DNA of 64,000 nucleotides from Planctomycetota bacterium. GTDB taxonomy: Bacteria; Planctomycetota; JAPUJT01. The stretch lies in contig JAPUJT010000124.1 of the NCBI GenBank assembly GCA_027296055.1, forward strand, positions 2,992-66,991, written 5' to 3'. The notes under the pieces are model-generated. The model was given only the letters and a program-made list of their open reading frames with translations, was not told where the DNA came from and did no database searches. This document shows, piece after piece, positions 5,814 through 34,580 of this stretch; position 1 is the stretch's first letter; the number at the start of each line of letters is the position of its first letter. The translations under genes and the position numbers were made by a program.

Positions 5814-7886
5814 CTACGGCTTCTTGAGCTGACCCGGCGCCGAAGAGGTGCCCCGCTTGATCACGCGGATCGTGTCCTGCGCGAACCAGCCAGCCCCATC
5901 GAAGGTCTCGCCACGAACAGTGATGAGGGTCTCGGGACCCTCTTGCAGGATGTTCGCCAGCGGTCCACGCGGAATCTTGATCATCAGGTCGGTCGAGCCG
6001 TTCCCGTTCGCATCCCCTAGAGCAAAGCGAGCAGAGGCGAAGACCGGCTCCTCCGGGTTGGCCCCCTCGAACCGGATCGTGCTCGGATCGAGGTCCGCCG
6101 GCGTCATGTCATCCCCGACCGTCTCGATGTAGACCGTCACCCACCGGCCCCCGCTGTTCAGATTCAACGTATCCGGATCGACGTCAATCGTCACCGCCGC
6201 CTCGGTTTGAAGCTGTCCCACCGCTGCGGCGTTCGAGAACGCATACAGGTTCCAGCTGCTGAGCGCGGTCCCGTCGAGGACGGCAACCGTGCCGCCGGCC
6301 TCCGCGAGGCCCGGGCCGGGACAAAGGAAGTCGGTGTTGCCCTTGTAGCAAACCGGTTCGGTGGAGATGCCCGTGAATGTCAGGAAGGACGCGCCTTCGA
6401 GCTGGCTCGGAGGCAACTCGGAGGCGAAGACCTGCTCGCCATGTCCGTCGCCATCCGGATTCCCAGCGTCCGTGTCGCTACCCCATAGATAGAGGTAGAA
6501 TTCCGTGTCGCAGGTCACTGTGTACGTCCCCAGGCTCCCCGAGGCTCCCGGTGAGATCGACGCGCCGAGGTACTCGCGGCAGTTGCCCGCCTGATCGGTG
6601 CATGAGTCCCCGAAGTCACATGGAAAGAGGGGGTCCGGGGACTTGTTGGCGTCGCATAGCTTGAACGAGTAGAAGGAGAACGGAAAGCCATAGTTGGCCG
6701 GATCACTGCCGGTCTGGAAAGCGGGCGTATTCTGAGAATCGTTCAGGACCGAGATGACGACGCACTGCTCGGTGGCAGGCGTCCCGTCCCACGGGCAGGG
6801 GGGGGCCGTCCCGGCGATGTTGATATTCCCCACCTCGTCCGCGGAGCCGATCGCGCCGACCGGCTCCTCAGCGAATCCGACTTCAAATACTTTGATGTCC
6901 GCCCCCGCGCCGTTGGGGCCGAAGGCGGTCGCGTTTCTCAGGATGGAGACATAGTTCACCGTGATCGTGCCTCCGCAGCCGACCGTGATCCAACCGGGCC
7001 ACTGGAGCTTTCCCGGAGGGGGCGAGGCCCCGTAGACTGGGGCGTAGGCGGTGTCCGCGGAGGCATCCCCGTCGCAGTCCAGGATGCTGACGAAAACCCC
7101 CGCCGTGTCGGTGATGATGGACGACGAGAAAGAGCCTACGATCGCAGCCGTCTGAGGGTTCAGCGGGTCCAGAAGAAAGTCCGGGTTTCCCGCCATGCCG
7201 GCCGTTCGCGGGAGCAGGCCCAGCGTCGTCAGCCCGGCGTCGAGGTGGGTCCCCAGCAGGTTGTCGTAGGGGAGCACGCTGCAATCCGGGTCCAGGAACG
7301 GACTCGGATGGAGCGCAGGGTCCTCGTAAGGCCCGTACTCCTCGTCGGTGACCGCCATTGTGAAGGGGTTCAGCGAGTTGACGCGGACTCCGGGAAAGAA
7401 CCGCGCATGAGACGTCGGGTTCACGTAGGCGGCGCCGTTCCAGGCCGTGACTGCGTGAAACTCGGGGCCCGTGAAGATATCGAACGAAGCGCTGCCCGTG
7501 ACACAGGCCGGGATGATCGTCACCGGGTCGTCGTCGTGATCGTCGAAGAGTTCGACGGCCTTGATCTCCGTCACGCCGTCAGGCAGGACGAAGTAGTAAA
7601 TTCCGACCCCTCCACCGAAATCGGGGAAGTTGCCAAATCCCGCCGGCGGGGCCAGTTCCGCCGGATTTCCGATGATGGGGAATCCGAGGGACGCGAAGGG
7701 AAAGGCGTTATCGCGGACTGCCGTCGGGTCGAAGGCCGCGGTGTTGGTGCCGTATGGGTCCCCCTCGACCTGTCCGGTTACGTCCATGCGATGGAGCTTG
7801 ACGTTTTCCTGGGCCTGAACCGATGCCCCCGCCAACAGGCCAAGGGCGGCGATACACGCCAAGACCCGGCCGAACGAAAACCTCAT
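5814..7886 (-). CDS. Secreted Cys-rich protein of unknown function
   Basis: ATG at 7886 with GGAGGAGGG upstream. Sec signal MRFSFGRVLACIAALGLLAGASVQA-QE. 690 aa with ~20 Cys. C-terminal module DPDTLNLNSGGRWVTVYIE...GDANGNGSTDLMIK...TVRGETFDG..F.AQDTIRVI. No catalytic motif recognised. Confidence 0.75.
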   Translation of the reverse strand: MRFSFGRVLACIAALGLLAGASVQAQENVKLHRMDVTGQVEGDPYGTNTAAFDPTAVRDNAFPFASLGFPIIGNPAELAPPAGFGNFPDFGGGVGIYYFVLPDGVTEIKAVELFDDHDDDPVTIIPACVTGSASFDIFTGPEFHAVTAWNGAAYVNPTSHARFFPGVRVNSLNPFTMAVTDEEYGPYEDPALHPSPFLDPDCSVLPYDNLLGTHLDAGLTTLGLLPRTAGMAGNPDFLLDPLNPQTAAIVGSFSSSIITDTAGVFVSILDCDGDASADTAYAPVYGASPPPGKLQWPGWITVGCGGTITVNYVSILRNATAFGPNGAGADIKVFEVGFAEEPVGAIGSADEVGNINIAGTAPPCPWDGTPATEQCVVISVLNDSQNTPAFQTGSDPANYGFPFSFYSFKLCDANKSPDPLFPCDFGDSCTDQAGNCREYLGASISPGASGSLGTYTVTCDTEFYLYLWGSDTDAGNPDGDGHGEQVFASELPPSQLEGASFLTFTGISTEPVCYKGNTDFLCPGPGLAEAGGTVAVLDGTALSSWNLYAFSNAAAVGQLQTEAAVTIDVDPDTLNLNSGGRWVTVYIETVGDDMTPADLDPSTIRFEGANPEEPVFASARFALGDANGNGSTDLMIKIPRGPLANILQEGPETLITVRGETFDGAGWFAQDTIRVIKRGTSSAPGQLKKP

Positions 7887-8168
7887 ATTCCCTCCTCCTC
7901 TGAAACGGCGACCCCGACATCCGAGCTTGGCGAGGCCGCCTCTCTGGATCCTGGCCCGCGCGATCCGACGCGCGAGGATTCAATTTCCCGACGATGGGAA
8001 CGCGTCAATCGGCTGGTCCGATTGCGCGTGCTTCATACTGTACAAACTGAACTACTTGGGGGATTTGTTCCTGGTCGATCGAGCCCCAAATATAGACGCT
8101 CGGTCGACTAACGTCAAGAAGATACCACGGATTCCCGGGAGGAGCAAGATCAAACCGCTGACGACTCA

Positions 8169-10526
8169 TCACAGCCCGGGAACTCGTAGGACTCGCGAAT
8201 TTCCAGGGTCTGCCAGGAAAAGCCCATCTGGCGTGGCGGCGGCTCCTGCGGGGTCCAGAGTCCCCAGATCGAGGGAGGAGCTGGAAACCCCACCGGAATT
8301 GGGAAACGAATCGTCGAAGTCGAGCTGCCCGAACACCTCATCCGCCGGAATCGACATGCCGCCTGGGGGGGGGACAGCGTCCCAGCGCAGGACACGATGG
8401 TTCAGCGAGTCGGTGATGAACAGCGACTGGCCGTCGTAAGCGACCCCGATGGGGGTGTCGAGGCCCGTGGCTCCGCTCCCGGCCAGCCCCGGCAGGAGGA
8501 AGTCCGGCTGACCCAGCACCGTTACGGCCGGCTCGTTGTCCGTCTGGGGTAGCGGCTCCCAGATCATGACGCGGTGATTGTCCCTGTCGGTCACGATCAG
8601 GGCGGTCCCTGCCGCACAGATGTCCGTGGGACTACTCAGAGACCGGTCATCGCTACCTCCACCGTTCTGGCCTCCGCTCACGAAGTCAGGCTGGCCCAGG
8701 ACGAGGTCGGCCGATTGATTGGTGGAGAACGGCGACGTGAAACGGAGGACGCGGTGATTGTCCCTGTCCGCTACCCAGAGGAAAGAGCCGTCGAGGATGA
8801 TCCCCGCCGGTTCGCTCAGCCGATTCTGGGCCGTCCCCACCTGGTTCGTTGTCAGGAAGGGCTGACCCACCGCAGCGGTGGCGGCCATCGCGTTGCCGAA
8901 CGGCGAGTCGAACACGAGGATCCGATGATTCAACGAGTCCGCCACGAGCAACGAGGCATCGCCGGCGGTGAAGGCGACATCGACCGGCCGGGCCATCCCG
9001 TCCGGATTCGTCGACGGAAGCAGGCTCATGAAGTCCGGCTGACCCAGAACGATGTCCGCAGGCTGGCCGTTACGGCTCGGAAGCGGGTCCCAGATCAGGA
9101 CGCGACGGTTGCCGCTGTCCGCGATGGCCAGCCGGGTAGGGGAGGCGGCGATCCCCGAGGGGAGGTGAAGCACATCGGCGGCCGTCAGCCGGTGGTTGGG
9201 GAAGCCAGAGACGAAATCGGGCTGTCCGAAGACTACGTCGGCCGGGGCGTTGTCGCTTGCAGGAATCGACTGATGGATCTTCACGCGGCGACTTCGCTCG
9301 TCGTAGATCAGGAGGCGATTCCCGTCGGCGAGGATCGACTGGGGTCCCCGGAGCGTGGCGGCAGACCGTCCTCCATTGTCCGGGATGCCGGAAGTGCCAT
9401 CCGGCTGGCCGAGGACGACGTCGGCGCAGGCGTAGTCGGCCGGGACGCTCGTGTTCCAGATCATGATCCGGTGGTTGAGCTCATCGGCGACGTAGAGGTG
9501 ACCCGAGTCCCCCGTGATCCCGAACGGCAGGTTGAACGTCCTCCGGCTCCTTCCGAAGGAGACCATCTCGGGAGAGCATAGCGGGACGCTTCCGTTGTCC
9601 AGGTTGGGGAGGCCTGATGTGAAATCGGGCTGACCCAGGACCCCATCCGCCTGCTGTCCATCGATCCATGTGGGGGGGATGTTCCAGATGAGGACCCGGT
9701 TATTGAATTTATCCGTGACAAAGAGAGTGCTGCCGTTCGAGTAGACCTGGCGCGGGCTCGCCAACGTGTCGTCGCCGGTCCCTCCCCCCTGATTTCGCTG
9801 GACCGAGGAGAAGTCGACCTGGCCCAGGACGTGATCGGCAGGGGGACCCTCCGTCGCGAAAGATAACGGCAGGTTCCAGATCAGGATCCGGTGGCTCCCC
9901 ACGTCACTGACGTAGAGGAAGCGGCTGTCTGCAAAGACATCGAGGGGGTTCTCCAGCGTGTCCGCTGCCGGCAGCCCTCCACGGTGAGGGAGGTCAGTGG
10001 AGAAGTCCGCCTGTCCGATCACGTGATCTGCGGGGACACGATTCGAGGCCGGCGGGCTGTCCCAGACGAGGACGCGGTTGTTCGCCGAGTCGCAGACGTA
10101 AAGCCTCTGGCCATCGCTGAAGCTCCCTCCCGGCCGATTCAGGCTGGCGGCCGATATTCCCCCGGCGTTCGGCTCCCGAAGGTTGAAATCGTCCTGGCCC
10201 AGGACCCGGTCGGCCGCCTCGAAATCCATCGACGGCAGACCATCCAGGATCAGCACCCGGTGGTTCGCCGCGTCGCTCACGTACAACGTGGTCCCGTCGA
10301 AGTGGAGTCCCGAGAGGCCGAGCGGATCGAGACCTCGGGAGTCGACGGCGCTCTCCGCAGAGGTTGTGTGGCCCAGGACGAGATCGGATTGCGGTCCGGG
10401 CGGAGGCGGGGGAGGTGGTGGTTTGGTCCGGCTAGATCCCTCGCAGGACGCGCTGCCCACCGCCGTCAGGACCGCGACCGCCAGGAATGACCGCCAGCCC
10501 GAACGGTTCCAGCTATGGCGTGACAT
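8169..10526 (-). CDS. NHL-repeat beta-propeller lipoprotein
   Basis: ATG at 10526, 11 nt upstream of the giant gene's TAG (14-nt overlap). Signal peptide plus Cys (LTAVGSASC), then a poly-Pro linker KPPPPPPPPGP. About 13 repeats of AD.VLGQ.DF.S...N.GG.....L..P..V..DG..L.V.D..NHRVL.W. Confidence 0.85.
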   Translation of the reverse strand: MSRHSWNRSGWRSFLAVAVLTAVGSASCEGSSRTKPPPPPPPPGPQSDLVLGHTTSAESAVDSRGLDPLGLSGLHFDGTTLYVSDAANHRVLILDGLPSMDFEAADRVLGQDDFNLREPNAGGISAASLNRPGGSFSDGQRLYVCDSANNRVLVWDSPPASNRVPADHVIGQADFSTDLPHRGGLPAADTLENPLDVFADSRFLYVSDVGSHRILIWNLPLSFATEGPPADHVLGQVDFSSVQRNQGGGTGDDTLASPRQVYSNGSTLFVTDKFNNRVLIWNIPPTWIDGQQADGVLGQPDFTSGLPNLDNGSVPLCSPEMVSFGRSRRTFNLPFGITGDSGHLYVADELNHRIMIWNTSVPADYACADVVLGQPDGTSGIPDNGGRSAATLRGPQSILADGNRLLIYDERSRRVKIHQSIPASDNAPADVVFGQPDFVSGFPNHRLTAADVLHLPSGIAASPTRLAIADSGNRRVLIWDPLPSRNGQPADIVLGQPDFMSLLPSTNPDGMARPVDVAFTAGDASLLVADSLNHRILVFDSPFGNAMAATAAVGQPFLTTNQVGTAQNRLSEPAGIILDGSFLWVADRDNHRVLRFTSPFSTNQSADLVLGQPDFVSGGQNGGGSDDRSLSSPTDICAAGTALIVTDRDNHRVMIWEPLPQTDNEPAVTVLGQPDFLLPGLAGSGATGLDTPIGVAYDGQSLFITDSLNHRVLRWDAVPPPGGMSIPADEVFGQLDFDDSFPNSGGVSSSSLDLGTLDPAGAAATPDGLFLADPGNSRVLRVPGL

Positions 10527-13500
10527 CGTATCTCAGGACCCGGTTGTTCCTCTGATCGTTCACCCAGAGGAGATCGGCCGCGCCGGGGACGAGGGAAAGG
10601 CTGCAGTTCTCCGAGAGGATCCCCTTCCCTATGAAGAGGGATACCTCGCTGACCCCGCCGTTGTTGGGCAGGCTATCGTCGAAGCTGGGCTGGCCGATCA
10701 GACGATCCGCCGCCTCTCCCGAGGCTACAGGGAACTGGTCCCAGATCATGATCCGGTTGTTGTCCCCGTCGGTCACCATGACCACGGTCTCGATCCCGGC
10801 CGTGTCCGATTCGACGCCGAGCGGCCGGCTCATCCCGGTGACGCTGGTTGCGGCGACTCCTGGGATCGTCGTGTCGGCCTGGCCGAGGACGAGGGAGACG
10901 GCCGGATCCATGTCGACCAACGGATCCGGCAGCGGATCCCAGATCATGACGCGGTGGTTGTCCCGATCGACCACGAGCAACTGAGTTCCGTTCGAGACGA
11001 CGTCGTTCGGATTGCGAAGACCGCGCGTGCCGTCGTTGTTTCCATGGTCGGGGCTCCCGGAGACGAGGTTGGGCTGACCCACAGCGATGTCCGCCGAGCC
11101 GTTGGTCACGATATTCGCGTCCGAGAATCGGAGCACCCTGTGGTTTCCGCGATCCACCACCCACAAGAATCCACCTCCCGAGGATTGCCACGAGAGGCCT
11201 GCGGGGTCGTCCATCCGGTTCGCAGCGAGCCCCGCGCCCACGCCCACCGAGTCCGGCTGGCCGAGCCAGATCGACTGGTCCATATCCGTGTTGAATGGCC
11301 CGTTGTAGACGGTGACGCGGTTGTTGGCCGAGTCCGCCACGAAGAGCCGGTCGCCTCCTGTGTCGTAGGCCACGTCCGTGGGGTTTCTGTGTCCCTTGGT
11401 CCCCCCCGCGGGCAAGATGCTCGAGAAGTCGGACTGACCCAGGACGAGATCCGCGTTCTTGTTGTTGACGTTTGGGATCGTGCTCCACACGAGGACGCGA
11501 TTGTTCCGGCTGTCGGCCACGAAGAGCTGCGAACCGTCCGAGTCGACGCCGCCCGGTCGCCGGAACGACCGGGGGTCGATCCGGGCGTGGTTCGGGAAGT
11601 TGGAGGTGAAGTTCCTCTGGCCGTAGACGATCTGCGCCGGGTCATTATCGCCTGTCGGGATCGTATCGTGAATTTTCACACGGCTGTTGTCGTGATCGAA
11701 GACGAGGAGCTCGGTTCCTGTGGAGGCCACCCCCAGAGGCAGCCTGAGGCTCGTACTGGAGAGGCCTCCGCTGTTGGCGATCCCTTGCCTTCCATTGATC
11801 TGGCCCAGGACCGCGTCGGCGCACCCATCGTCGAAGGTGATGTCCGTGCTGGGTGGAGGGTTCTGGTTCAAGATAACTACCCGGTGGTTGCCTCCATCCG
11901 CGATATAGGTGTGCCCCGTATCGAGGAAGACGTCCTGCGGAAAGTTCAAGGATCGACGGCTCCGGCCGGCGCTGTTTCCGTCACCGGCGCACGCCGTGGG
12001 GTTAAAGTCGCCGTTCGGGATGGCCGGCGACGTGAACGCCGCCTTACCCAGGAGCCCGTCCGCCGCCTGACCGTCCGCCCAGGCAGGTGGCGTGCCCCCG
12101 GGAATCGTCCACCAGAGGACCCTGTGGTTCGTCGTGTCGGCGACGATGAGCGTCGTCCCATCGGTGAATATCCCGCGCGGGCTGTTCAAGGTGTTGCCGT
12201 TCGTCCCCCCTCCCCGGTTGGCCATCTCGCTAGTGAAGTTCGCCTGGCCGAGGACATGATCGGCCATCTGGCCATCCGTCCACGCGGGAGGAGTTCCGGC
12301 CGGGATGTTCCAGATCATGATCCTGTGATTGTTCGCGTCACTGACGAAGATCTGATCCGCATCCCCGTAGATCCCCAGGGGCGTGTCCAGCGTGTCCTGA
12401 TCGGGACCGCCCCCCATGTCGGGCATGTTGTCCATGAAGTTCAGCTGTCCGAGGACGTGATCGGCAGGGACGTTGTTCGACGTCGGGATCGCGTCCCAGA
12501 TCAGGACCCGGTGATTGTCCGTATCGCACACGTAGAGGCCGGTTCCATCGGAGTAGACCCCCATCGGGTTGTTCAGGCTGCTGGCCGAGGGGCCCTGGAA
12601 GTTCTCCACGTTGACGCTGAAGTCCTTCTGCCCGACGACGACGTCGGCCGTCTGGAAGTCCGACCCCGGCACACTGTCGAAGATCAGGACACGATGATTG
12701 GCCGGATCGCTGACGAAGAGCTGCGACCCCCCGATGTCAGCGTCCCCGCGGGACGTCCCCTTCTCCAGCTCTTCCGGATCGATCCCCCGACCGTCGACCC
12801 CTCCCTGGAGGAAGCTGTCGTGACCCAGGACCAGCTCGGCGGAGATCGAGTTATCCACGGAGAAAGGGTTGGACGCAGCGAGAGCACCTACCGCCCCGTG
12901 CTGGTCGGTGGGCGTGATCTGAATCTCGACGTCTGTACTGATCGTGCTGCTGAGATCCGCGAACGTGTCCCAGATGAAGAGGTGACCCACCTCCTCACCC
13001 AGGGGCCCGGATGTCAGCATGACCTTCCCTTCCGCCGGCGGGGCGGTGGACTCGGTCGCCGTGACGGGAGTGCCCCCCCCGATGCTGTACTCGATGACGA
13101 GATCGACCAGGTGGCTGAAGGAGTCGCGGATCCGGTACGAGACATAGACGTCGCCCGACTGTACGCCGCTGATGTTGAAGATCTGGACGACCGGGGCCTG
13201 GTTGTTGTCCACATCGAACATGTTGGAGGTGTCGGGGATTCCCAGCTTCGTGTCCATCGGCGTGATTGTTATCGTGACGTTGGGGACGAAGTCGCGGCCG
13301 AGATCGGTCACCGACTCCCAGACGAAGACATGCGCCGTGCCTCCGGGAGAAGAGGTGAGCCCGGTGACGCCGTCGCTGCCGGCGCCCTCCGTCGCGGGCA
13401 CGGGACCTCCCCCCACGTCGTACTCCACGACGATGTCCTGCAGGTCGCTCTCCGCGTCGGTCAGGGTGTAGTTCACCGTGATGTCGCCGCTGGAGGGGCT

Positions 13501-22104: not shown

Positions 22105-22207
22105 CACCAATCCCCTAGAAGCGCCGTTACGGAAGGCACGAAAGGCCCTCTGTGGCGGGCGGCAGCGAAATTATCGAAGAAAGGAAAACCTAGCCCCCAG
22201 GCGAGTC

Positions 22208-25300: not shown

Positions 25301-28300
25301 CTGACCCGCGTCGGTCGAATACTCGACGACCAGGTCGGTCGGATTGGACTCCGCATCACCGAGGCTGTACGTGATCAGGATATTGCCCGACTGATCGCCC
25401 GGAGGAAACGGGTTGATCGTGACGATCGAGGGCTCCTGGTTGTTGTTGACGAGGAAGTCCGGGGTCGTGAACGGGACCCCGTCGTTCTGTCCGTCGTTCG
25501 GCGTGATCCGGAGTGTGACCATGGACGAGTCGGCGGAGATGAGGTTCGCCGCGGAGTTCCATACGAAGGTGTGCGAGATGCCGGCGGGGGAGGATGTGAG
25601 ACCAGCGATCCCCTCGCTGGGGAGGCCCGTCCTCTCCGTTGCGGTGAAGTAGTCCGTGCCGTTGGTCGAGTAATCGACGGTGATGTCGATGGCATCGCTG
25701 TTGCCATCGATGAGTATGTGCGTGACCTGAACATCCCCCGCCTCGAAGCTCCCCTCGGCCGGTGCCCCGATGAACGATATCGGCAGGTCGTTGTTGGAGA
25801 TGTCGATGACCACCGAGCCTGGGGTGCCGTCCGGGGGAGGGAAGTCCCTAGGGGTGAGGCGGAAGGTGACCCCGGTGAAGTTACCCATCCCGAGGTCGCT
25901 GATCGAGTTCCAGGCCAGGCTGTGAGGAGTCCCCCCCGGAGACGACGTGAGATTGCTGATCTCTCCGACGGTGATCATCGCGGGGCTGAAGGTGATCCCG
26001 TCGGTGGAGTACTCCGCGATGAGGCTCACGAGGTCGCTCGTCGAGTCGAACAGGTTATACGAGACCTCGATCAGTCCGGAGACCATGTCGGCCGCGACGG
26101 GCGAGATTATGGTGAGCGATGGGACATCGTTTCCGCGTATGAAGAGGTTGGAGATGTCGGAGGTCCCCAATCCGTCCGGGTCCATCGGGATGATCTCGAT
26201 CTCGAGATCCGCCTGGGCGCCCGGAGGCAGATCCGTCGACGTGTCCCACACGAACGTGTGCCCGATCCCACCCGCCGAAGTGAGCAGGCCGGTGACGCCA
26301 TCGCCCCCCGCGCCCGCCATTGCCGGCAGGAACGGCCCCACTCCCCCTTGTCGCCAGCCGACGGTGATGTCCGCCGGATCGGCGTCGCCGTCGGACAGCG
26401 TATAAGTGATCGTGACATCCGTCCCGAAGGCACGCGCCACCGTGTCGATCCGGACCACCGGTCGAAGGATGGCGTTGTCCAGGACGAAGGCGGCCGTTAC
26501 GACCGCGAGGCCGGTCGCCGCGTCCGACGCGGTGATCTCGATCAGAGTCTGGTTCGAGGGACCGACATAGCCGATGTTGCCTATGCTGTCCCATACAAAG
26601 ATGTGGGGGATTCCGGAGGGGCTGGTCGTGAGACCGGTCGTTCCCTCGCTGGGCGGGCCCGTCTGCTCCATCGCCACCGCCCAGATCAGGCCGTTATCGG
26701 TCGTCGAGTACCTCACCTGGATGCTGGCCGCGTCCGAGTTCGTGTCCGTCAGGGTGTACGAGATGGTGACGTCTCCCGACTGCAAGCCGCCGGGCGTCAC
26801 GATCGCCGTCACGGGGGCGTCGTTGTTGTTCACGACGAAAGCGTTCGAGGTATCCGACGTCCCGAGCTTCGTATCCCTTGGAGTGATCCGGATCGTCACC
26901 CCCGTCACGAAGGCGGGGCCGAGATCGGTCTGGGATGACCAAAGGAACAGATGTGCTACCCCGGCGGGAGTCGAGGCGAGTCCAGAAATCCCGTCACTCG
27001 GCGAGCCTTCCGTGGCGGAGATGAATCCGCTGCCCGCGTCGTACTCGACGAGAATGTCCAGCGGGTCGCTCTCCGCATCGGTCAGGGTGTATCCGATCAG
27101 GATGTTTCCCGAAGATGGGTCCGGGATCGCGTTGATCGCGACGGAGGGGGCCGTCGTGTTATCCACGGTGAAGAAGTCGGTCTGCGTTCGAGTCCCCTCG
27201 CCAAGGGCGAGGACGGGATTGTCACGCGGCACGATCCGGATGAGCACCGTGTCGTCCGCCGCCGCGACCCCGATCATGTCGCCGGTCGAGCCCGTGTTCC
27301 AGACGAAGACGTGCGCCACTCCGACGGGGGTGGAGGAGAGGCCCGTCACCCCCTCACTCGGAAGCCCGGCACGCTCCGTCGCCGGAAAGAAAGCGACGCC
27401 GTCCGTCGAGTAGAGGACATCGATATCCACGAGGTTCCCCTCGGGATCGAAGAGGACGTAGTTGATCGTCACGTCGCCTACCTGTGAGCCCGAAGGGGTC
27501 GTGATCGTCGCCGATGGTTCCTGGTTGTTATTCACCAGAAAGTTCGCCGTCGTGGTGGGGAGCCCCGGATTCTGGGGATCGGTCGGGGTGATCTGGAACG
27601 TCACCGTGTCCGAGTCGATCGTGTTCAGGTTCGTCCCCGAGGCCCAGACGAATATGTGACTGTCCCCCCCGGGCGACGAGGAGAGCCCCGTCGTACCCTC
27701 GCTGGGGAGGCCTGTTCGCTCCGTCGCGTCGAGGTAAGTGCTCCCATCGGTCGAGTATTTTACCGCCGTCGTGATCGTGTCGGAGTTCCCGTCGATCAAT
27801 ATGTAGGAGACGGTGACATCCCCGCTTCGTAGATCCCCTGCCACCGGTGCGCCGATGAAGGCCACCGGGAGGTTGTTATTCTCGACATCGAAGGTGGCCA
27901 CGTCGGGCAGACCGGTTCGCGGTTCGTCGTCCGTCGGCGTGATCCTGAACTGCACCGCCGTGAAGTTCCCTATGCCCAGGTCCGCCACCGAGTTCCAGGC
28001 GAACGAGTGAGACGTCCCCAGCGGGTCGGATGGCAGGTTGGTCTTTCCCCCCACCTGGATCGTCGCCCCGAACCAGTCCACGCCAGCGTTCGTCGAGTAG
28101 TCGGCCGCCACGTCTATCGGGTCGCTGGTCGAGTCGAATAGACTGAATTCGACCGGGATCAGACTGCCCACGATGCCTCCCGCCGGACTCGTGATCGTGA
28201 CCATCGGGTCGTCGTTCCCCACCACGAAGACATTGGAACTGTCATCGATCCCGGTGCCGTCGATGTCCGACGGCGCGATACGAACCTGGATGCCCCCCTG

Positions 28301-30907
28301 GGCCATCGGCCCGATGTCCAATGACGCCTCCCAGACGAGGTTGTGGATCACTCCTCCGGAGGAGGTCGTCTGGCCTGTGATCATGCTCCCCGACGGCGTC
28401 CCATCATCGGTGCTCTTGATGTTGGTGACCGGCAAGAAAGTGATCCCGTCGGTCGAGAAGGAGACGTCGAGGGTCGCCAGGCTGGCGTTTCCATCGAGCA
28501 GACGGTACTGGACGAAGACATCGAAGCTGTACGACCTCGACATCGGGTCGATCAGGACGATCGGCACGAGGGAGCCGTTGTCGATCGAGAAGACGCCGGA
28601 CTCCGCCTGTCCGCCGAGGACCGAGTCGGAGGGCGTGATGCGGATTCGCGCCGCGCTCGTGCTCGTCAGGCTGATGTCCGCAATCGAATCCCAGACGAAG
28701 ATATGGCCCGACCCCACCGGAGACGATGCAAGACCCGCGATACCGTCGCTCGCTGGCGAGACGCAAGCCGTGCACTCCGAAGCGGGAAGCGGAGCGTAGG
28801 TTGTTCCCGAGTCCGTGGACCACTCCACCAGGATCGAGACCGGGTCCGAATTCGTGTCGAACAGGGTGTACGTGATGATCACATTGCCCGACTGGACGCC
28901 CACCGGCGTCTCCACCACCGCCACGGGGGCGCTGTTGTTGTCCACCTCGAAGACACCCGATACCGCCGGCGCGCCCGTCTTGGTGTCCGACGGGATGATC
29001 CGGAGGACGACGTTCGTCTCGCGGGCCGTCCCCATGTCCGCGAGTGTGTCCCATGCGAACGTGTGAAGATCTCCGCCCACGGACGATGAGAGACCCGCCA
29101 CCCCCTCCCCTTGACCGAGGGCCCGGGTCGCCGGGGAAAAGGGGCCCGCCGGTCCGTTGATCGAGAACGACGGGTCGATGTCGATCGGATTGCTCTCCAG
29201 GTCGGTCAGCGTGTAGTCGACGAGCACGACGCCGGACACGATCGCCGGCACCGCTGCGATCGCCGCGCCCGGCGCCACCGTGTTGTCCACGAGGAAAACG
29301 TCGGTAAACGCGGTTGGCCCTTCCCCGAGCCGCGAGTCCGGGTTGTCGCGTGGCCGGATGCGGACCACGACCGTGGGCGCCAGCACCCCTGCCAGATCCG
29401 TCGTCGCCGTGTCCCAGACGAACGTGTGAGGAATGCCCCCCGGATCTGATGGTAGAGCCGTCGTCCCCTCGCTCGGAAGACCGACGCGCTCTGTCGCTGC
29501 CATCCAGTTTTGACCTCCGTCTAGCGTATACTCCAGGTCGATGTCCACCGGGTCGCTTCCCGTGTCGGTGAGCATGTAGCTGATCGTCACGTCCCCCAGC
29601 GTCTGCGGGCTTGGCGGGGTGCTGACCGCGGCGGAAGGCTCGGAGTTGTTGTCGAGCAACAACCCCATCGTCGGTAGCGAGGTCGTCAGCCCGGACGCAT
29701 CCATCGCCGTGATCCGCATCTGGAGCGGCGGCGCCGCCAGTGTCGGCGGAATGTCGGTGTCCATGAGATCCGTCGCGGAGGCCGAGGCCCAGCGGAAGAC
29801 GTGCGCAATACCCCCCGGGCTCGTCGCCAGCCCCACCGTGCCGCCGCTCGGGGGGTTGATGCATGCCAGACACTCCGTCGCGAGGAACCAGGTCACCCCG
29901 TCATCGATCGAGTATTCCACCAGGATGCTCACCAGGTCGCTGTCCTCATCGATCACCAGATAGTCCAACTGGACGTCTCCTCCGATCACCTGGCCGCTGA
30001 CCGGCGAGCTGATGAAGACGATCGGCGCCGGGTCGTTCTCAACGAAGAAGTCCCCCGTCTCGGCGAAGGGAGGGAGGGCGCACACCTGGATCGCCCCGTC
30101 CGGACTGTCGCAGGGTACGATCCGAACCCTCACGGTCGGCTCGTTCGCCAGACCCTGCGCGTCGCTGTCCCAGGCGAACGTGTGGGGCTCTCCGGCGCGC
30201 GAGGAGGTCAGGTTCGTCGTTTCCCCCACCGGGATCTGCGTCACCGGCTGCCAGGAGCCACCTAGATCGAGCGAATAATCGACCTGGATATCGACGAGGT
30301 CGTCCGTCGAATCGACGAGCGTGTAGTCGATCCGGACCAGGTCGTTTTGTGTCCCTGAAGGCGTCGTGATCGTGGCGGCAGGCGCCTCGTCCCACGCGGG
30401 GAAATTCGTCGTCTCCTCCATGAGACCGATCAGATTCGGGCTGCGGGAATCCTGCGGCGTGATGCGCACCCGGACAAACTCCGCCCCGCCCGGCAGGTCT
30501 GCCGCCGAATCCCAGATGAACATGTAGGGAATCCCTGTGTCGCTGGTGACCAGGTCAATCGTTCCATCGCCGCCTGCCTCCGTGCAGGGGAGCCAGGGAG
30601 CCATTGGATTTCCCGTTCCCGGGTAGGGAACGACGGCGTACTCCACCGTAATGTCGGCCGGTTGCATCTCGGGATCGGACAGTCGGTAGGGGATTTCCAC
30701 CGTCAGCTCCGATCGAACGGGTGCATCGATGCTCACGCTGGGGGCCGCGTTCGACGCTCGGCCACTGCTGCCTCCTCCCGAGGACGCCGCGATGGCTGCG
30801 ATGGCAATGTAACCGCAGCCGGTTCCGAACTGGGAGAGAAGAGTCGCCAGTAGAAAGAGCGTCGAGCGAATCCCCCTGGCGGGCCACCTGATAGAGCCGA
30901 ACCTCAT
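22310..30907 (-). CDS. Giant exported repeat protein 2 (2,865 aa): ~18 Asp-box-containing modules plus classical NHL repeats
   Basis: ATG at 30907 with AGGAG upstream. N-terminus ...LFLLATLLSQFGTGCGYIAIAAIAASSGGGSSG. The modules are colinear in type with giant 1. The C-terminal ~680 aa carry ~13 repeats of GDGGPA..A.L..P.G.AVD..GN.Y(I/V)(A/S)D..NH.IR.VD. Confidence 0.9.
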   Translation of the reverse strand: MRFGSIRWPARGIRSTLFLLATLLSQFGTGCGYIAIAAIAASSGGGSSGRASNAAPSVSIDAPVRSELTVEIPYRLSDPEMQPADITVEYAVVPYPGTGNPMAPWLPCTEAGGDGTIDLVTSDTGIPYMFIWDSAADLPGGAEFVRVRITPQDSRSPNLIGLMEETTNFPAWDEAPAATITTPSGTQNDLVRIDYTLVDSTDDLVDIQVDYSLDLGGSWQPVTQIPVGETTNLTSSRAGEPHTFAWDSDAQGLANEPTVRVRIVPCDSPDGAIQVCALPPFAETGDFFVENDPAPIVFISSPVSGQVIGGDVQLDYLVIDEDSDLVSILVEYSIDDGVTWFLATECLACINPPSGGTVGLATSPGGIAHVFRWASASATDLMDTDIPPTLAAPPLQMRITAMDASGLTTSLPTMGLLLDNNSEPSAAVSTPPSPQTLGDVTISYMLTDTGSDPVDIDLEYTLDGGQNWMAATERVGLPSEGTTALPSDPGGIPHTFVWDTATTDLAGVLAPTVVVRIRPRDNPDSRLGEGPTAFTDVFLVDNTVAPGAAIAAVPAIVSGVVLVDYTLTDLESNPIDIDPSFSINGPAGPFSPATRALGQGEGVAGLSSSVGGDLHTFAWDTLADMGTARETNVVLRIIPSDTKTGAPAVSGVFEVDNNSAPVAVVETPVGVQSGNVIITYTLFDTNSDPVSILVEWSTDSGTTYAPLPASECTACVSPASDGIAGLASSPVGSGHIFVWDSIADISLTSTSAARIRITPSDSVLGGQAESGVFSIDNGSLVPIVLIDPMSRSYSFDVFVQYRLLDGNASLATLDVSFSTDGITFLPVTNIKSTDDGTPSGSMITGQTTSSGGVIHNLVWEASLDIGPMAQGGIQVRIAPSDIDGTGIDDSSNVFVVGNDDPMVTITSPAGGIVGSLIPVEFSLFDSTSDPIDVAADYSTNAGVDWFGATIQVGGKTNLPSDPLGTSHSFAWNSVADLGIGNFTAVQFRITPTDDEPRTGLPDVATFDVENNNLPVAFIGAPVAGDLRSGDVTVSYILIDGNSDTITTAVKYSTDGSTYLDATERTGLPSEGTTGLSSSPGGDSHIFVWASGTNLNTIDSDTVTFQITPTDPQNPGLPTTTANFLVNNNQEPSATITTPSGSQVGDVTINYVLFDPEGNLVDIDVLYSTDGVAFFPATERAGLPSEGVTGLSSTPVGVAHVFVWNTGSTGDMIGVAAADDTVLIRIVPRDNPVLALGEGTRTQTDFFTVDNTTAPSVAINAIPDPSSGNILIGYTLTDAESDPLDILVEYDAGSGFISATEGSPSDGISGLASTPAGVAHLFLWSSQTDLGPAFVTGVTIRITPRDTKLGTSDTSNAFVVNNNDAPVTAIVTPGGLQSGDVTISYTLTDTNSDAASIQVRYSTTDNGLIWAVAMEQTGPPSEGTTGLTTSPSGIPHIFVWDSIGNIGYVGPSNQTLIEITASDAATGLAVVTAAFVLDNAILRPVVRIDTVARAFGTDVTITYTLSDGDADPADITVGWRQGGVGPFLPAMAGAGGDGVTGLLTSAGGIGHTFVWDTSTDLPPGAQADLEIEIIPMDPDGLGTSDISNLFIRGNDVPSLTIISPVAADMVSGLIEVSYNLFDSTSDLVSLIAEYSTDGITFSPAMITVGEISNLTSSPGGTPHSLAWNSISDLGMGNFTGVTFRLTPRDFPPPDGTPGSVVIDISNNDLPISFIGAPAEGSFEAGDVQVTHILIDGNSDAIDITVDYSTNGTDYFTATERTGLPSEGIAGLTSSPAGISHTFVWNSAANLISADSSMVTLRITPNDGQNDGVPFTTPDFLVNNNQEPSIVTINPFPPGDQSGNILITYSLGDAESNPTDLVVEYSTDAGQSFILAKDAGILFGSHGTTALSTSPGGTSHDFVWETDVDLPGKRETSVDVRLTPEDNVLAILGVGTPGRTGVFVVDNTLAPTATIDNVTSPTGKMAPPDDVHRNLTIDYRIIDLESNLSSIQLKYSTTGVGPISGWSDATVDASIGDGTEDLTTSPGVGTVHQIGWISEVDLSGYFATVHIAIIATDSKEDPAPTSYGPFVVNNTPVTASANVAPGILFDRVTLSYRLIDSNLDLADVTVSYSTNGSAGPFMAATEAEGLPSEGLLGLSTSAAGEGHIFVWSAFFDLGRANYTDVVLLVQPTEQPTGSVGTPGATGSFRLDNRVIATISGAGNGDEGDALDALIFARDVAADSFGNIYFTEFIRARVRHVDAFTGQIRTIAGNGAQRDMGDGGPAYLASLRQPEGIAVDANRNLYIADLNNNKIRRVDAITEIITTVAGGGTDPNDDILATDARLRSPRDVAVDSNGDIFISEWQGALYHRVRRVDSTGFIRAFAGTGAPGFMGDLGLAVSAQLDEPMYLAIDSLDDVFISDSKNFRIRWVDRASGNIDTYAGNGMDNAMGDGGLATAAGLANPWGLAIDTMDNLYIVNRGANRTRIVDTGGIINNFAGTGSATFSGDGGPALLAGTGSNWGVATDPLGNIHIATNGRIRTVDSGLIINTVAGTGGTLFQNDVPAISQVHSNINGVAVDSAGNVYVTTDGRIRLVDAQTGLITTVAGNGGCSWSGDGSPATDFTITLPRQLFLDEAGGLIYVADWGHNRIRVVDLVADSISTFAGIGVGCTTAGGFSGDLGLATAAELNRPNGITFDASGNAYIADTENHIVRIVDTSGIIDTWAGTPATSGYTGDGGPADMATMTFPTDVVVDSGGFIYIADSSNHVIRVVDLLLDIDTFAGTGTAGYSGDGGDALAAMLNRPFGLAVDTSDNIYVSDLDNHRVRVIDVSLTPDIITTIAGTGGAAFGGDGGPAVSALMVSPNGIDVDATGVVYFVDSGNDRIRRF
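24345..30754 (-). repeat. Coding tandem array of ~18 modules with the same ~2.1-kb super-repeat
   Basis: Same module consensus as in giant 1. 'VAFIG/ISFIG' landmark codons lie at 27855 and 25770 (2,085 nt apart). Confidence 0.85.
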
Positions 30908-30996: not shown

Positions 30997-31025
30997 ATTC
31001 TAGATCCCGGGGGCGATGTGGGCAA
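30997..31025 (-). promoter_or_regulatory. Candidate sigma70-type promoter of giant gene 2
   Basis: Minus strand: TTGCCC (31025-31020), 17-nt spacer, TAGAAT (31002-30997), in the 181-nt gap between the TPR gene stop and the ATG at 30907. Confidence 0.35.
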
Positions 31026-31088: not shown

Positions 31089-32000
31089 TTAGTGGCTGCC
31101 GGTCGGTGAGGTGGGCAGCGTAGGGTTCCCGGAGGGCCGGCTGTCGCCGGCGGCCTGAAGGCGGGCGATTTCGGAGCGATCCGCCTCTGCGCGGTGTGTG
31201 GCCCCGATGCCCTCGTTCACGCGCAAAGCTCGTCGCAGATACCCGATCGCGGAGGCGCGATCCCCCGACTTCTCCATCACCCGCGCCAGGCTTCGGAGCG
31301 AGAGGGCGATCCCCTCGCGATCCGCCCGCTGGCGGTTCAGACGGAGGGCCTCTTCGAGCGCGATTCGAGCAGCATCCAGCCGATCCAGCCCCTCCTCGGC
31401 GCGGGCCCGATTGGCCAGGTTGGAGGCGAGATCATCCCATCTCTCGTGGTCTCGGTTGAAGGCCTCGGCCTCGGCGAAGAACCTCCTCGCCTCCTTCGGC
31501 TGACCCTCCCGCATCCTCACGAGGCCCATCTGGTTCAGCGTGATCGCGCGTCCCGCGGGATCACGCAACTCTTTCTGGATTTCCAAGGCTGACTGAAGTC
31601 GCTTCCGGGCGGCTTCGACATTCTCCTCTCGAAGGTCCAGGGCGGCGAGATCGTTGAGACACAGTGCCATGGCGAGGCGATCTCCAGCGATCCTGTAGAT
31701 CTCCATGGCGGCCCTGAATCCCGTTCGAGCCTCATCCAGATTTCCGAGCCGCTCCTGGACGCGGGCAAGATTCGCGATGCTTCCAGCTTCCGAGGGCAAA
31801 TCGTCGTGATCGCGGCTCTCCTCGAGCGCCCTGAGAAAGAACCTGTTGGCCTCCTCGTAATTGCCTGCCCGGTACGTCTTCACTCCCTTCTCGCTCCACT
31901 TGACTCGAGCGGGGGGATCTTCCCGGACGGGCGGCGCGGAGCCACAGGCTGGGCCGAGAATCAGGACGGCTGTCAGGGCAAGGATGGTGAGGCGGCTCAT
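31089..32000 (-). CDS. TPR-repeat lipoprotein
   Basis: Signal peptide plus Cys (LTAVLILGPAC). ~34-aa helical repeats with A..Y/F...A/L patterns and recurring LG/A...L..A/LE blocks across 303 aa. The start lies 3 nt after the MlaD-like stop. Confidence 0.8.
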   Translation of the reverse strand: MSRLTILALTAVLILGPACGSAPPVREDPPARVKWSEKGVKTYRAGNYEEANRFFLRALEESRDHDDLPSEAGSIANLARVQERLGNLDEARTGFRAAMEIYRIAGDRLAMALCLNDLAALDLREENVEAARKRLQSALEIQKELRDPAGRAITLNQMGLVRMREGQPKEARRFFAEAEAFNRDHERWDDLASNLANRARAEEGLDRLDAARIALEEALRLNRQRADREGIALSLRSLARVMEKSGDRASAIGYLRRALRVNEGIGATHRAEADRSEIARLQAAGDSRPSGNPTLPTSPTGSH

Positions 32001-32003: not shown

Positions 32004-32999
32004 TCAATCCTCGTAGGGGTCCATTCTTCGACTCCGGGAGATGGACGTCTCGATCTCTGGGAGCGGATCGAGGTTTCCTCGTATGAGAATGTTCCTCTCC
32101 GTTGCTCGAATGAGGCGACGGGCCTCCGCCGTCGTGTACCGGGTCGCCTCCGCCGTGCGAGGGATCTCCTCGGAGACGAGCTGGAGGGCCAAGGTGGCCT
32201 CATCGAGAGCCTGCCGGAGGTCTTTGACGACGGCGGGGAGGCCTGCCTCCGGTTCGGACAGGTTGGTCAGGATGGTCTGGACGTTCGCCATCGCTACCGA
32301 AACCTCCTCGAAGAGGGTGTTGAGCCGGACGGCATTGGATTCGAGCTTCTCTATCAGACCCTGCATATTGTCCACGTTTACCGTGGCGGTCTCCGCGAGC
32401 TCGCGGAACTGCTCGACGGTCTCGCTCGCCTTCTCGGCGATTCCATTGAGATTTGCGTAGAGCTGGCCCTCGTCCTTGATCAGGGCACCGATGCTTCCCT
32501 CTCCCTCACGAATCCCTCTCGCGATCTCCTCGAGGTGATCGCTAAGGCCGACCATCCTTTCGGCGAGGGTCCCGAACGACTCCGTCGTGCCCGCCTTTAC
32601 TCGGGCCGGGATCCGGGCGCCGGCCCCCAGAGGCTCGGCGCCAGCGCCTGGCAAGAGCGACACTTCGGTTCCACCGAAGAACGATGGAGGGATCACCTCC
32701 GCAACGAGCCCCGCGCTCAGCCGATCCGAGTGCTCGGGAAGAATCTCGAGGGTCACGGTGACGGAGTTGGTCTGGCCGAGTCGGACCGACTGGACGGTCC
32801 CCACCGGTACCCCGCTCATACGGACCACCGCCCCGTCGTCCAGCCCGTGGGCCTCGTCCAGCGTGAAGGTGAGGGTCGGGCGTTGGTGGAACCAATCGTG
32901 GCTCTGGCTGCGGGCGACGAAAGCGATCCCCCAGACGAGGATGGAGATGAGAAGGATCAGCCCGGCCATCTTCTCGGCTCGTGTTGTCGGCGTTGTCAT
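32004..32999 (-). CDS. mlaD: MCE/MlaD-family substrate-binding protein with long C-terminal helical region
   Basis: N-terminal TM helix (MAGLILLISILVWGIAFV). MCE core FTLDEAHGLDDGAVVRMSGVPVGTVQSVRL...VTVTLEI. GSIGALIKDEGQLYANL motif. ~150 aa of predicted coiled-coil/helical tail. Confidence 0.8.
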   Translation of the reverse strand: MTTPTTRAEKMAGLILLISILVWGIAFVARSQSHDWFHQRPTLTFTLDEAHGLDDGAVVRMSGVPVGTVQSVRLGQTNSVTVTLEILPEHSDRLSAGLVAEVIPPSFFGGTEVSLLPGAGAEPLGAGARIPARVKAGTTESFGTLAERMVGLSDHLEEIARGIREGEGSIGALIKDEGQLYANLNGIAEKASETVEQFRELAETATVNVDNMQGLIEKLESNAVRLNTLFEEVSVAMANVQTILTNLSEPEAGLPAVVKDLRQALDEATLALQLVSEEIPRTAEATRYTTAEARRLIRATERNILIRGNLDPLPEIETSISRSRRMDPYED

Positions 33000-33022: not shown

Positions 33023-33694
33023 TTAGCCCGCCACGAGGCGTCCCTCTCGAAGCACCCGGACCTGCGCGGACGCCGCCGGCACCCGGTCTCGATCCGTCGT
33101 GCCGATGACGGCCGTCAGTGTCCCCTCGACGGTCGTGCGCACCTGATCCCAGATCTCCGAGGCGCGCGTACGCGACAGACGAGTGAAGAAGTCATCGAAG
33201 ACGATGACCTCCGGACCCATGCTGAGCGCTCTTGCCAGGGATGCCGCGTGGGCCTCCTGCAGCCCCAGCTCCGCGGGTCTCTGATCCGCCATCGAGTCGA
33301 GGTCGAGGGCGCGGAGTATCTTCACGACTCGATCTCCCACCTCGTCCATCGGAATCAGCTCGTGGTACACCAGGGGGAGCGCCACATTGTCGAAAACGCT
33401 CAGGTTCTGCAGGAGGGCAGACTCCTGGAAGACGAAGCCCAGCTTCATTTTCGCTGCACGCCTCCGGGCGTACGGGTCGAGGTGGAGATCCGTGCCAGCG
33501 AACCGGACGGTCCCCCGATCGGGGGGAATGAGTCCCGAGCAGACCTTGAGCAGACTCGTAGCCCCTGCCCCCGCTTCCGCCTCGATGACCACTACTTCGC
33601 CGCGAGCCACTTCGAGGTGCAGATCGGAGAAGAGGCTCCTGCGTCCCCGTTGCAGATGGATCTTCTCGGCAGAAAGGACGGGAAGTTCAGCCAT
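33023..33694 (-). CDS. MlaF-like ABC nucleotide-binding-domain protein with degenerate catalytic motifs (pseudo-ATPase)
   Basis: The ABC NBD fold is recognisable (Q-loop FVFQESALLQNLSVFDNVALPL; LARAL helix). Walker A reads AEAGAGATS (Lys to Ala). The signature reads LGLQE instead of LSGGQ. Walker B reads VIVFDD (catalytic Glu to Asp). The H-loop His is Thr (GTTD). Confidence 0.75.
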   Translation of the reverse strand: MAELPVLSAEKIHLQRGRRSLFSDLHLEVARGEVVVIEAEAGAGATSLLKVCSGLIPPDRGTVRFAGTDLHLDPYARRRAAKMKLGFVFQESALLQNLSVFDNVALPLVYHELIPMDEVGDRVVKILRALDLDSMADQRPAELGLQEAHAASLARALSMGPEVIVFDDFFTRLSRTRASEIWDQVRTTVEGTLTAVIGTTDRDRVPAASAQVRVLREGRLVAG

Positions 33695-33715
33695 CGAGAG
33701 TTCGCTCCCTTCTCC

Positions 33716-34519
33716 TCACCATGCCGCGCCGGAGATGAACAGGGTGCAGACCAGGTTCAAGACGAGGCAAACGAAGATCGAGGAGATCACGGCGCGAGTC
33801 GCCATCTGTGGCACTTCCGTCGGCGACAGTCGGACCGATAGTCCGTAGTGACAGGCGAGGAGGGCGACCGCGGTGCCGAAGAGGATCGATTTGAGCGCCA
33901 GCATCGGCAGGTCCCAGGTTCCCATCAGCTCCAGGAGGGGGACGCGGCCGGCAGATTCGGAGAGGAGGCCCATGCTCCTCGCCATGAACTCGCCCCCGTG
34001 GAAGGAGACGGCAAACACATAGAGGTTCAGCACCAGGAGGGAGGCCACCATTCCGAGGAGCCGGGGGAAGATCACGAAATAGTCCATGTTGATCGCCATG
34101 GCGTCGAGGATCTGGTCCTCCCGGTTGATCTTCATTGTCCCGATCTCGGTCACCATCGCCGTCCCGGACCGGCCGATGATCACGAGGATCGTGATCAGGG
34201 GCATCAGCTCCCTCAGGAACATCTCGGAGGAGGGCCGGATATGAGCGGCGAGGCCGAGGCCTCCGAGGAGTTGAGCGGCGATGAAGAAGACGACGGTTCC
34301 CACGCAGACGGAGGCGAGCGTCAGCAGCGGGATCGCCTGAGCCGCCGTGAAGTAGACCTGTCTCAGGAAGCTCTGCCAGACGAGTTGGCGACCGCGGCCC
34401 TTCTCCAGGAAGAAGGCCTTCAGGGTCGCGTACCCCAGTCCCGCTACTCCGGCCCCACGAGAGATCAAGCGCAATGCCCAGCGGCCGATCCCCCCCAGGG
34501 GGTCACCCAGCAATCCCAA
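33716..34519 (-). CDS. mlaE: MlaE-family ABC transporter permease
   Basis: 267 aa, multi-pass membrane protein. Hallmark IIGRSGTAMVTEIGTMKINREDQILDAMAINMDYFVIFPRLLG. TTG start at 34519 with AGGAG 9 nt upstream. Confidence 0.85.
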   Translation of the reverse strand: MGLLGDPLGGIGRWALRLISRGAGVAGLGYATLKAFFLEKGRGRQLVWQSFLRQVYFTAAQAIPLLTLASVCVGTVVFFIAAQLLGGLGLAAHIRPSSEMFLRELMPLITILVIIGRSGTAMVTEIGTMKINREDQILDAMAINMDYFVIFPRLLGMVASLLVLNLYVFAVSFHGGEFMARSMGLLSESAGRVPLLELMGTWDLPMLALKSILFGTAVALLACHYGLSVRLSPTEVPQMATRAVISSIFVCLVLNLVCTLFISGAAW

Positions 34520-34551
34520 CTCTGTGCTCCTAGTAGTCTTAGGGAAGAGCC

Positions 34552-34580
34552 ATGGTACTCGATTGGGCTTTCGCGGTCAA
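34552..34580 (-). promoter_or_regulatory. Candidate sigma70-type promoter of the mlaE operon
   Basis: Minus strand: TTGACC (34580-34575), 17-nt spacer, TACCAT (34557-34552), ~30 nt upstream of the mlaE start. Confidence 0.4.

Follow-up and report, generated by a model that had tools for sequence, protein, structure and literature searches.

A run of eight genes in the genome of a Planctomycetota bacterium raises the question of whether a putative lipid transporter and a set of giant surface proteins encoded side by side form a single system. The run extends from position 34519 down to 5814 of a 64,000-nucleotide stretch of contig JAPUJT010000124.1 (assembly GCA_027296055.1), which we refer to as the window and whose coordinates are used throughout. 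It begins with a transporter operon of the MCE/Mla type ending in a TPR lipoprotein gene, and continues with genes for two giant repeat proteins (G1 and G2), an NHL lipoprotein and a secreted protein of 690 aa. An initial annotation had described the run as a 29-kb envelope supercluster and had proposed, as inference only, that the transporter and the giants are functionally linked. Our analysis indicates instead that the region is probably a neighborhood of separate envelope modules, consisting of the MCE/TPR block, the fiber proteins and an orphan, and not one system.

The open reading frame (ORF) map of the window contained eight ORFs, all on the minus strand, with the coordinates that had been assigned to them. 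The MlaE-family permease (267 aa, 33716–34519), the MlaF-like ABC nucleotide-binding domain (NBD; 223 aa, 33023–33694), the long MlaD/MCE protein (331 aa, 32004–32999) and the TPR lipoprotein (303 aa, 31089–32000) are encoded with intergenic gaps of 21, 23 and 3 nt, and family matches supported each identity, in agreement with the earlier assignment of these genes to one tight operon. Beyond the TPR gene, gaps of 181 and 199 nt precede the genes for G1 (2,865 aa, 22310–30907) and G2 (10513–22110; 3,865 aa from a TTG start or 3,863 aa from an ATG). The G2 gene overlaps the gene for the 785-aa NHL lipoprotein (8169–10526) by 14 nt, and a further 282 nt separate the latter from the gene for the 690-aa secreted protein (5814–7886), as had been described. 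All of the non-transporter products carry N-terminal export signals, also as annotated; inspection of the translations identified a lipobox-type Cys in the TPR, G1, G2 and NHL proteins and a Sec-type signal in the 690-aa protein. The GC content is even across the cluster (~0.64), and eight co-directional genes in a bacterial chromosome are unremarkable.

Transcription units and gene neighborhoods

We carried out a consensus scan of ~18 kb of cluster stretches for promoter-like sites. Each of the four larger non-coding gaps contained one minus-strand site, and no further minus-strand site was found in the DNA scanned. The sites were TTGACC-17-TACCAT at 34552–34580, 33 nt 5′ of the mlaE start; TTGCCC-17-TAGAAT at 30997–31025, 90 nt 5′ of the G1 gene; TTGACG-18-TACAAT at 22208–22237, ~100 nt 5′ of the G2 gene; and TTGACG-17-TATATT at 8089–8117, ~200 nt 5′ of the 690-aa gene. 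Because only a few percent of the scanned stretches is non-coding, this placement is unlikely to have arisen by chance. Since every larger gap holds such a site, the run would comprise at least four transcription units. Thus, the prediction that each giant gene has its own promoter candidate held, and the MCE/TPR block and the giants appear to be transcribed separately. No convincing alignment was obtained between the upstream regions of G1 and G2, which thus gave no evidence for a shared regulatory element.

Relatives of the MCE block were identified with a word-indexed protein search of a 5.8-billion-sequence database, which returned one MlaD fragment with 87% identity, two proteins with ~50% identity and two with 26% identity. 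One of the relatives (L001) lies on a 3.8-kb contig that encodes MlaE, an ABC NBD, MlaD and a 307-aa protein. The gene order and the close spacing match those in the window; these proteins were 50–62% identical to their window counterparts (62% for the NBD), and a promoter-like site was present in a similar position 5′ of mlaE. A second contig (L002) contains the end of an NBD gene, mlaD and a gene for a 287-aa protein. In both cases, the protein encoded directly after mlaD was 61% identical to the window TPR lipoprotein and kept its N-terminal Cys. Because the MlaE–MlaF–MlaD–TPR order recurs in these relatives, we conclude that the four-gene block is a conserved unit. The genes downstream from a distant mlaD homolog (L048, 26% identity) were unrelated and did not include a TPR gene, indicating that the TPR gene is linked to mlaD only within the close family. 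The word-indexed search together with scans of genome and metagenome contigs detected this MCE/TPR subtype on three short contigs only. A scan of genome contigs with the TPR alignment returned no match, and a metagenome contig scan for longer MCE/TPR relatives returned only two unrelated large TPR proteins.

The same comparison was made from the side of the giants. No MlaE, MlaD or TPR gene was found within 10 kb of the giant genes at any of four homologous loci (L007, L008, L009 and L047), and tblastn with the window MlaE, MlaF-like, MlaD, TPR, 690-aa and CARDB-repeat proteins confirmed this result; homologs of the 690-aa and CARDB-repeat proteins were likewise absent within 10 kb at all four. 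The giant gene of L007 (P0010) is flanked by hydrogenase and formate-dehydrogenase-type genes. That of L008, whose product (P0014) is 43% identical to G2 including the NHL head, is flanked by RND efflux, radical SAM and PSCyt2/PSD1/DUF1501 genes; L008 is also the locus closest to the window in composition (tetranucleotide r = 0.958, GC 0.66). L009 encodes P0117 and P0114, with a G1-type NHL region, and L047, from Planctomycetota, encodes P0012 and P0017. The closest homologs of the giants, P0018 (49% identical to G1 and 44% to G2) and P0058, correspond to MCZ6690931.1 and MCZ6690936.1, which are five accession numbers apart on one 73-kb contig of a Planctomycetota metagenome-assembled genome (MAG). 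The word-indexed search returned no NCBI-sourced ortholog of the window MlaD; this is weak evidence against an MCE block of this subtype lying next to the giants on that MAG contig. Tandem giant paralogs were also present in L009 and L047. Since tandem paralogs occur at these two loci and on the MAG contig, the series formed by G1, G2 and the 785-aa NHL protein is a typical case of in-place duplication.

At two of these loci, which are unrelated to each other, the gene immediately preceding the giants encodes a Ser/Thr kinase joined to an FGE-sulfatase domain (L009, 5345–8110; L047, 4038–9923), and in L009 a gene for a caspase-like C14 peptidase is also found upstream. The pairing of the kinase–FGE-sulfatase gene with giants may be recurrent; no such gene was found among the window ORFs scanned.

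The MCE/TPR operon and its nucleotide-binding subunit

The permease matched PF02405 (E 1.7e-41) over 211 of 212 profile positions and matched TIGR00056 with an E value of 1.7e-30 but with a score that falls short of the curated cut-off of that model. The best PDB matches of the NBD were MlaF structures (E 1.7e-25), and PF00005 was matched with an E value of 9e-19. The third protein matched the MCE domain (PF02470, E 3.6e-16) and TIGR00996, and carried a precomputed PF28544 Helical_needle annotation. An AlphaFold model of the MlaD monomer, which was used for secondary-structure layout only (mean pLDDT 54.7, low outside the MCE domain), contained a transmembrane helix at residues 7–33, the MCE beta domain at residues 42–134 (pLDDT ~80) and an all-helical C-terminal region of ~180 aa (helices 142–317, low confidence). 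This helical region agrees with the Helical_needle annotation, and no C-terminal beta-barrel was predicted. Thus, the operon encodes an MCE-domain protein with an N-terminal membrane anchor, as in the MlaFED core. The fourth protein matched TPR_12 (E 8e-27), and its lipobox-type Cys follows a hydrophobic N-terminus.

Alignment of the NBD to solved MlaF structures revealed replacements in each of the catalytic motifs. Walker A is GPSGIGKT in MlaF and AEAGAGAT in the window protein (Lys to Ala), the signature LSGG is LGLQ, Walker B FDE is FDD (catalytic Glu to Asp) and the switch sequence SHD or THD is TTD (His to Thr). The Q-loop glutamine and the Walker B aspartate were kept. Thus, the ABC fold was present, and the motifs of a catalytically competent MlaF ATPase (GxxGxGK[ST], LSGGQ, D-E and the switch His) were not found. 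In E. coli, replacement of the Walker A lysine alone (K47R) abolishes both the ATPase activity of MlaF and complementation (PMC5016091); the corresponding residue is Ala in the window NBD. The NBD encoded in L001 (1149–1856) has all of these replacements in common with the window protein (EAEAGQGATS, LGLQEAHAASLARA, VFDDFF and TTDR), and the NBD fragment encoded in L002 (2–214) contains the Walker B and switch changes (FDDYF and STDR). Since the replacements are common to the relatives, they are conserved and are not sequencing errors. This is also the only NBD encoded in the window, and its gene occupies the canonical MlaF position. Judging from these motifs, the MlaF-like subunit most likely does not hydrolyze ATP. 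A scan of one-genome-per-species GTDB contigs with the alignment of this degenerate family found no further member; it returned only canonical ABC ATPases with at most 33% identity, and Walker A was normal in several of these matches that were translated.

MlaEFD-only systems with a long MlaD have been described as a widespread ancestral form, which in Veillonella lies inside a larger outer-membrane gene cluster (PMC10665443). The window operon resembles the Veillonella parvula type in that it encodes MlaE, MlaF and MlaD without MlaA, MlaB or MlaC, that an elongated alpha-helical region accompanies the transmembrane helix and MCE domain of its MlaD, and that it has a wider neighborhood of envelope genes (PMC10665443). 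It has the alpha-helical extension by which the long-MlaD minimal form is recognized, the beta-barrel being optional. It differs from the Veillonella type in the absence of a predicted beta-barrel from MlaD, the TPR lipoprotein as the fourth gene and the NBD without catalytic residues. The closest named matches of the permease and the NBD were to the E. coli MlaFEDB–MlaC–MlaA system (PF02405; MlaF, PDB 6xbd, E 1.7e-25), with which the N-terminal anchor of the MCE protein is also common. However, the four-gene window operon lacks a STAS partner (MlaB), a periplasmic shuttle (MlaC) and MlaA, and all of its scores were under the NCBIfam equivalog cut-offs. Unlike actinobacterial Mce operons, which contain two YrbE and six Mce genes, the window has one permease gene and one MCE gene, with no paralogs. 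PqiABC and other needle or tunnel MCE systems, as described by Ekiert et al. in 2017, reportedly have an outer-membrane lipoprotein partner (PqiC in the case of PqiABC) and no ABC ATPase. The window operon is similar in that a lipoprotein gene follows the gene for an MCE protein with a long helical extension, and in that it may work without an ABC ATPase. It differs from PqiABC in that its permease is MlaE-type and not PqiA-type, its MCE protein has one MCE domain and not three, and its TPR lipoprotein is unrelated to PqiC; the PqiB match was marginal (E 7e-5, only ~50 residues). The PqiA/LetA-type permease and the protein with multiple MCE domains that mark PqiABC and LetAB are thus both lacking.

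By analogy with the lipoprotein partners of other MCE systems, the TPR lipoprotein would be the partner at the distal, outer-membrane end of the MCE assembly. The first module (34519–31089) is probably a self-contained minimal MlaEFD-type MCE system with a co-translated TPR lipoprotein, which most likely functions without ATP turnover by the NBD, as a passive lipid conduit or an envelope bridge in which the NBD is a structural subunit. A conserved Mla-type operon in which no catalytic motif of the NBD, the only one in the window, is intact would provide a natural test of whether MlaE and MlaD can move or hold lipids without ATP hydrolysis. It would thereby touch on two points still under debate, namely in which direction MCE systems transport lipids and how they use energy. 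The conserved TPR lipoprotein, in turn, may be a new type of outer-membrane partner.

An IS200-like Y1 transposase gene (36001–36702, plus strand) lies 1.5 kb upstream of the operon. The GC content dips to 0.60–0.61 between 34000 and 38000, compared with ~0.64, and together with the transposase gene may mark a past rearrangement.

Giant stalk-and-propeller proteins

As the initial annotation had proposed, G1 and G2 are paralogs, with 46% identity over 2,288 aligned positions (BLASTP). An iterative profile search resolved 18 tandem domains of ~115 aa in G1 (aa 56–2192) and 26 in G2 (aa 61–3089). Clustering of the 44 domains identified a six-domain super-repeat in G2 of ~700 aa (2.1 kb), present in ~3.3 copies, and showed that domains 8–16 of G1 are colinear with domains 16–24 of G2 at 55–69% identity. 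The DNA repeats had spacings of ~345 nt and 2,085–2,115 nt, and since the copies were at most 78% identical, the duplications are old. Assembly collapse or a chimera was considered as the origin of the giants and was rejected because of this limit on DNA repeat identity together with the regular register.

The domain consensus contains an invariant Trp and the sequence YSTDGGxTF, which fits the Asp-box motif S-x-D-x-G-x-T-[WF], so the Asp-box label given earlier is fair. Pfam matches to the stalk domain were weak (Reelin_subrepeat-B, 33–42 bits; BNR, 27.0 bits, equal to its cut-off), with no single stretch passing alone, and no curated Pfam or NCBIfam model covering the domain was found. Modeling with the 44 copies as the alignment gave a confident beta-sandwich (pLDDT 93.5), and a fold search of the PDB with this model returned only generic Ig-like matches (TM ~0.5).

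The stalks are followed by NHL regions. PF01436, which has a cut-off of 20 bits, scored 140 bits in G1, 92.6 bits in G2 and 113.7 bits (E 1.3e-33) in the 785-aa protein. The C-terminus of G1 is a teneurin-type NHL region (TEN_NHL, 155 bits), whereas the ~775-aa NHL region of G2 is of a different type. The 785-aa protein aligned along its entire length with the last 776 aa of G2 at 46% identity and is a stalk-less paralog of the G2 head; it has a hydrophobic N-terminus preceding its lipobox-type Cys.

At the opposite end, G1 and G2 have a signal peptide, the lipobox-type Cys, 12–13 hydrophobic residues (CGYIAxAAIA...) and a Gly/Ser linker, encoded at 30770–30907 and 21970–22110, respectively, on the minus strand. 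This N-terminal anchor module (signal peptide, lipobox-type ‘SGCG’, 12–16 hydrophobic or Gly residues, and a Gly/Ser or acidic linker) was found in ~25–31 of 138 full-length top matches of the stalk domain, including P0014, P0018, P0035, P0049, P0055, P0058, P0113 and others. The module could be a cleaved lipoprotein anchor or a hairpin anchor.

The stalk-domain family was large and extended over several lineages. An exhaustive hidden Markov model search of 1.84 billion representatives with the domain profile yielded 4,200 proteins at E ≤ 1e-3, of which 633 had E ≤ 1e-30, whereas the word-indexed search with the domain alignment returned only one 94-aa fragment. Many family members are giant, up to 5,918 aa with 38 copies of the domain, and the named members came from Planctomycetota and Candidatus Rifleibacterium MAGs. 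Judging from these source names and from marker genes at L008, the host of the window genes would be a Planctomycetota-like diderm. A model of this family, which comprises ~4,200 representative clusters and has no curated model, and many members of which have a lipobox Cys and a hydrophobic N-terminal anchor, would help to annotate many of the very large proteins now listed as hypothetical in Planctomycetota-like MAGs.

Like the giants, type 1-secreted Ig-repeat adhesins have a stalk of tandem Ig-like beta-sandwich domains that is thousands of residues long, together with a terminal domain of another kind. The giants differ from these adhesins in having an N-terminal signal, a lipobox Cys and a hydrophobic anchor, and in having neither a C-terminal secretion signal nor, among the ORFs scanned, adjacent type 1 secretion genes. 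Their C-termini are NHL propellers where a type 1-secreted RTX or Ig-repeat adhesin would carry its secretion signal, and no RTX matches and no MFP or TolC genes were found among the cluster ORFs and the larger flanking ORFs scanned. A tandem Ig-like stalk, a terminal domain and tandem paralogs are also features reported for the giants surveyed in bioRxiv 10.1101/2023.11.21.568195. Unlike known giant adhesins, the window proteins have a repeat that is an Asp-box beta-sandwich without its own Pfam or NCBIfam model, and a head that is an NHL propeller. The second module (30907–8169) is probably a tandem family of N-terminally lipid- or membrane-anchored fibers with an Ig-like Asp-box stalk and an NHL beta-propeller head, in which a stalk-less head paralog follows the two fibers. 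From this architecture, the proteins are most likely adhesin-like or ligand-binding surface filaments.

A terminator-like hairpin (22188–22202, minus strand) lies between the −10 element of the G2 promoter-like site and the G2 start codon. It could be a 5′-leader attenuator or a chance match, as 11 such sites were found in the scanned stretch and 4.7 were expected.

Competing explanations and surrounding genes

In the arrangement that we favor, the modules would have their own promoters and would lie together because envelope genes cluster and the giants were duplicated in place. Several points weigh against it. The four giant loci whose context was checked are distant from the window proteins (28–43% identity), the closest homologs being 44–49% identical. 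The L001 contig ends 73 nt past the TPR stop codon (3776–3848) and the L002 contig ends 23 nt past it (2074–2096); a break after the TPR gene in two independent assemblies would fit a repetitive downstream gene, although it proves nothing. With contigs that end 23–73 nt past the TPR gene, a link confined to this lineage is possible. A site scan found no terminator-like site in the interval that separates the TPR gene from G1, so transcription of the MCE operon could continue into the latter. Moreover, the surface exposure and lipidation of the giants, the outer-membrane location of the TPR protein and the loss of ATPase activity from the NBD are properties that we infer from sequence. The lack of a terminator-like site and the contig ends just past the TPR gene also favor a functional supercluster in which the MCE/TPR machine serves the giants, for instance by moving either their lipidated hydrophobic anchor or particular lipids through the periplasm and thereby allowing the fibers to be mounted on the outer membrane. 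In addition, all of the genes lie next to each other in one direction, the giants and many of their relatives have 12–16 hydrophobic residues after the lipobox Cys and would need a hydrophobic carrier to cross the periplasm, and a dead NBD hints at an unusual role for the transporter. However, G1 and G2 are preceded by their own promoter-like sites, none of the four homologous giant loci has an MCE/TPR gene within 10 kb, no NCBI-sourced MlaD ortholog was returned even though the closest giant homologs come from an NCBI MAG, and the giant family has thousands of representatives whereas the MCE/TPR subtype was found on three short contigs only. With apparently separate transcription units and no MCE/TPR gene within 10 kb at the four giant loci, the proposed functional link gained no support, and the supercluster, which also has to accommodate an MCE/TPR block conserved by itself in a relative, is improbable. 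Its most specific form, in which the four proteins are an ATP-independent trans-envelope conduit that was recruited in this lineage to move the lipidated anchors of the giants, or a lipid that they need, to the outer membrane with the dead NBD as a scaffold, is very improbable; if true, it would constitute an MCE-based route for mounting surface lipoproteins. If the adjacency reflects neighborhood only, the cluster itself is ordinary and two of its components are still notable.

The remaining alternatives concern the transporter itself. It is unlikely that the operon encodes an ordinary ATP-driven Mla-type transporter whose degenerate subunit forms a pair with, or gives way to, a canonical NBD from another part of the genome, or binds ATP in a regulatory role. 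In its favor, heterodimeric ABC exporters such as PatAB are well known for asymmetric NBD pairs in which one site is degenerate, the Q-loop glutamine and Walker B aspartate are kept, the fold-level similarity to MlaF and LolD is strong, and our view of the genome covers 64 kb. However, Mla complexes use an MlaF homodimer (PDB 6xbd and others), so that both ATP sites would be degenerate; the subunit is the only NBD in the window and its gene is in the canonical position; and the Walker A Lys, signature, catalytic Glu and switch His have been lost together, when the K47R change by itself inactivates E. coli MlaF. Loss of all of the catalytic motifs, together with the transposase gene and GC dip 1.5 kb upstream, would also suit a decaying relic, with an NBD gene on its way to becoming a pseudogene and a cluster that no longer functions in transport. 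Against this, all four ORFs are intact and tightly spaced, and a relative at 50–62% identity keeps both the four-gene order and the replacement residues (EAEAGxGATS, LGLQEAHAASLARA, VFDDFF and TTDR). Since order and residues are kept, purifying selection is indicated, and we regard a relic as highly improbable.

The last gene of the run (7886–5814) would form a third module, encoding an orphan secreted Cys-rich protein. The Sec-type signal of this 690-aa protein ends in VQA|QE, and its 14 Cys residues make up 2.0% of the sequence. Searches of Pfam (even at E ≤ 10), NCBIfam and PDB sequences gave no match for it, and the word-indexed search returned only the protein itself.

Outside of the run, two plus-strand genes converge on it (544–2823 and 2880–5726). 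Their products, of 759 and 948 aa, are mutual paralogs with CARDB repeats (E 8e-65) and matches to DUF11-type repeats and choice-of-anchor D; the 948-aa protein has the lipobox LGCGGGGG. Because these genes converge on the cluster, the surface-protein neighborhood reaches beyond the same-strand run. At the other end, a methyltransferase gene (34552–35385) diverges from mlaE. No tRNA or Rfam features were found in the window, and the rest of it contains ordinary chromosomal genes, including those for a molybdenum hydroxylase, a DnaE2-like polymerase with LexA, and adenylosuccinate lyase. The gene for the DnaE2-like pol III alpha subunit (1,021 aa) adjoins the lexA gene at 46335–50064 on the minus strand, an arrangement typical of SOS mutagenesis genes, and two large WD40 propeller proteins are encoded beside them at 42342–46325.

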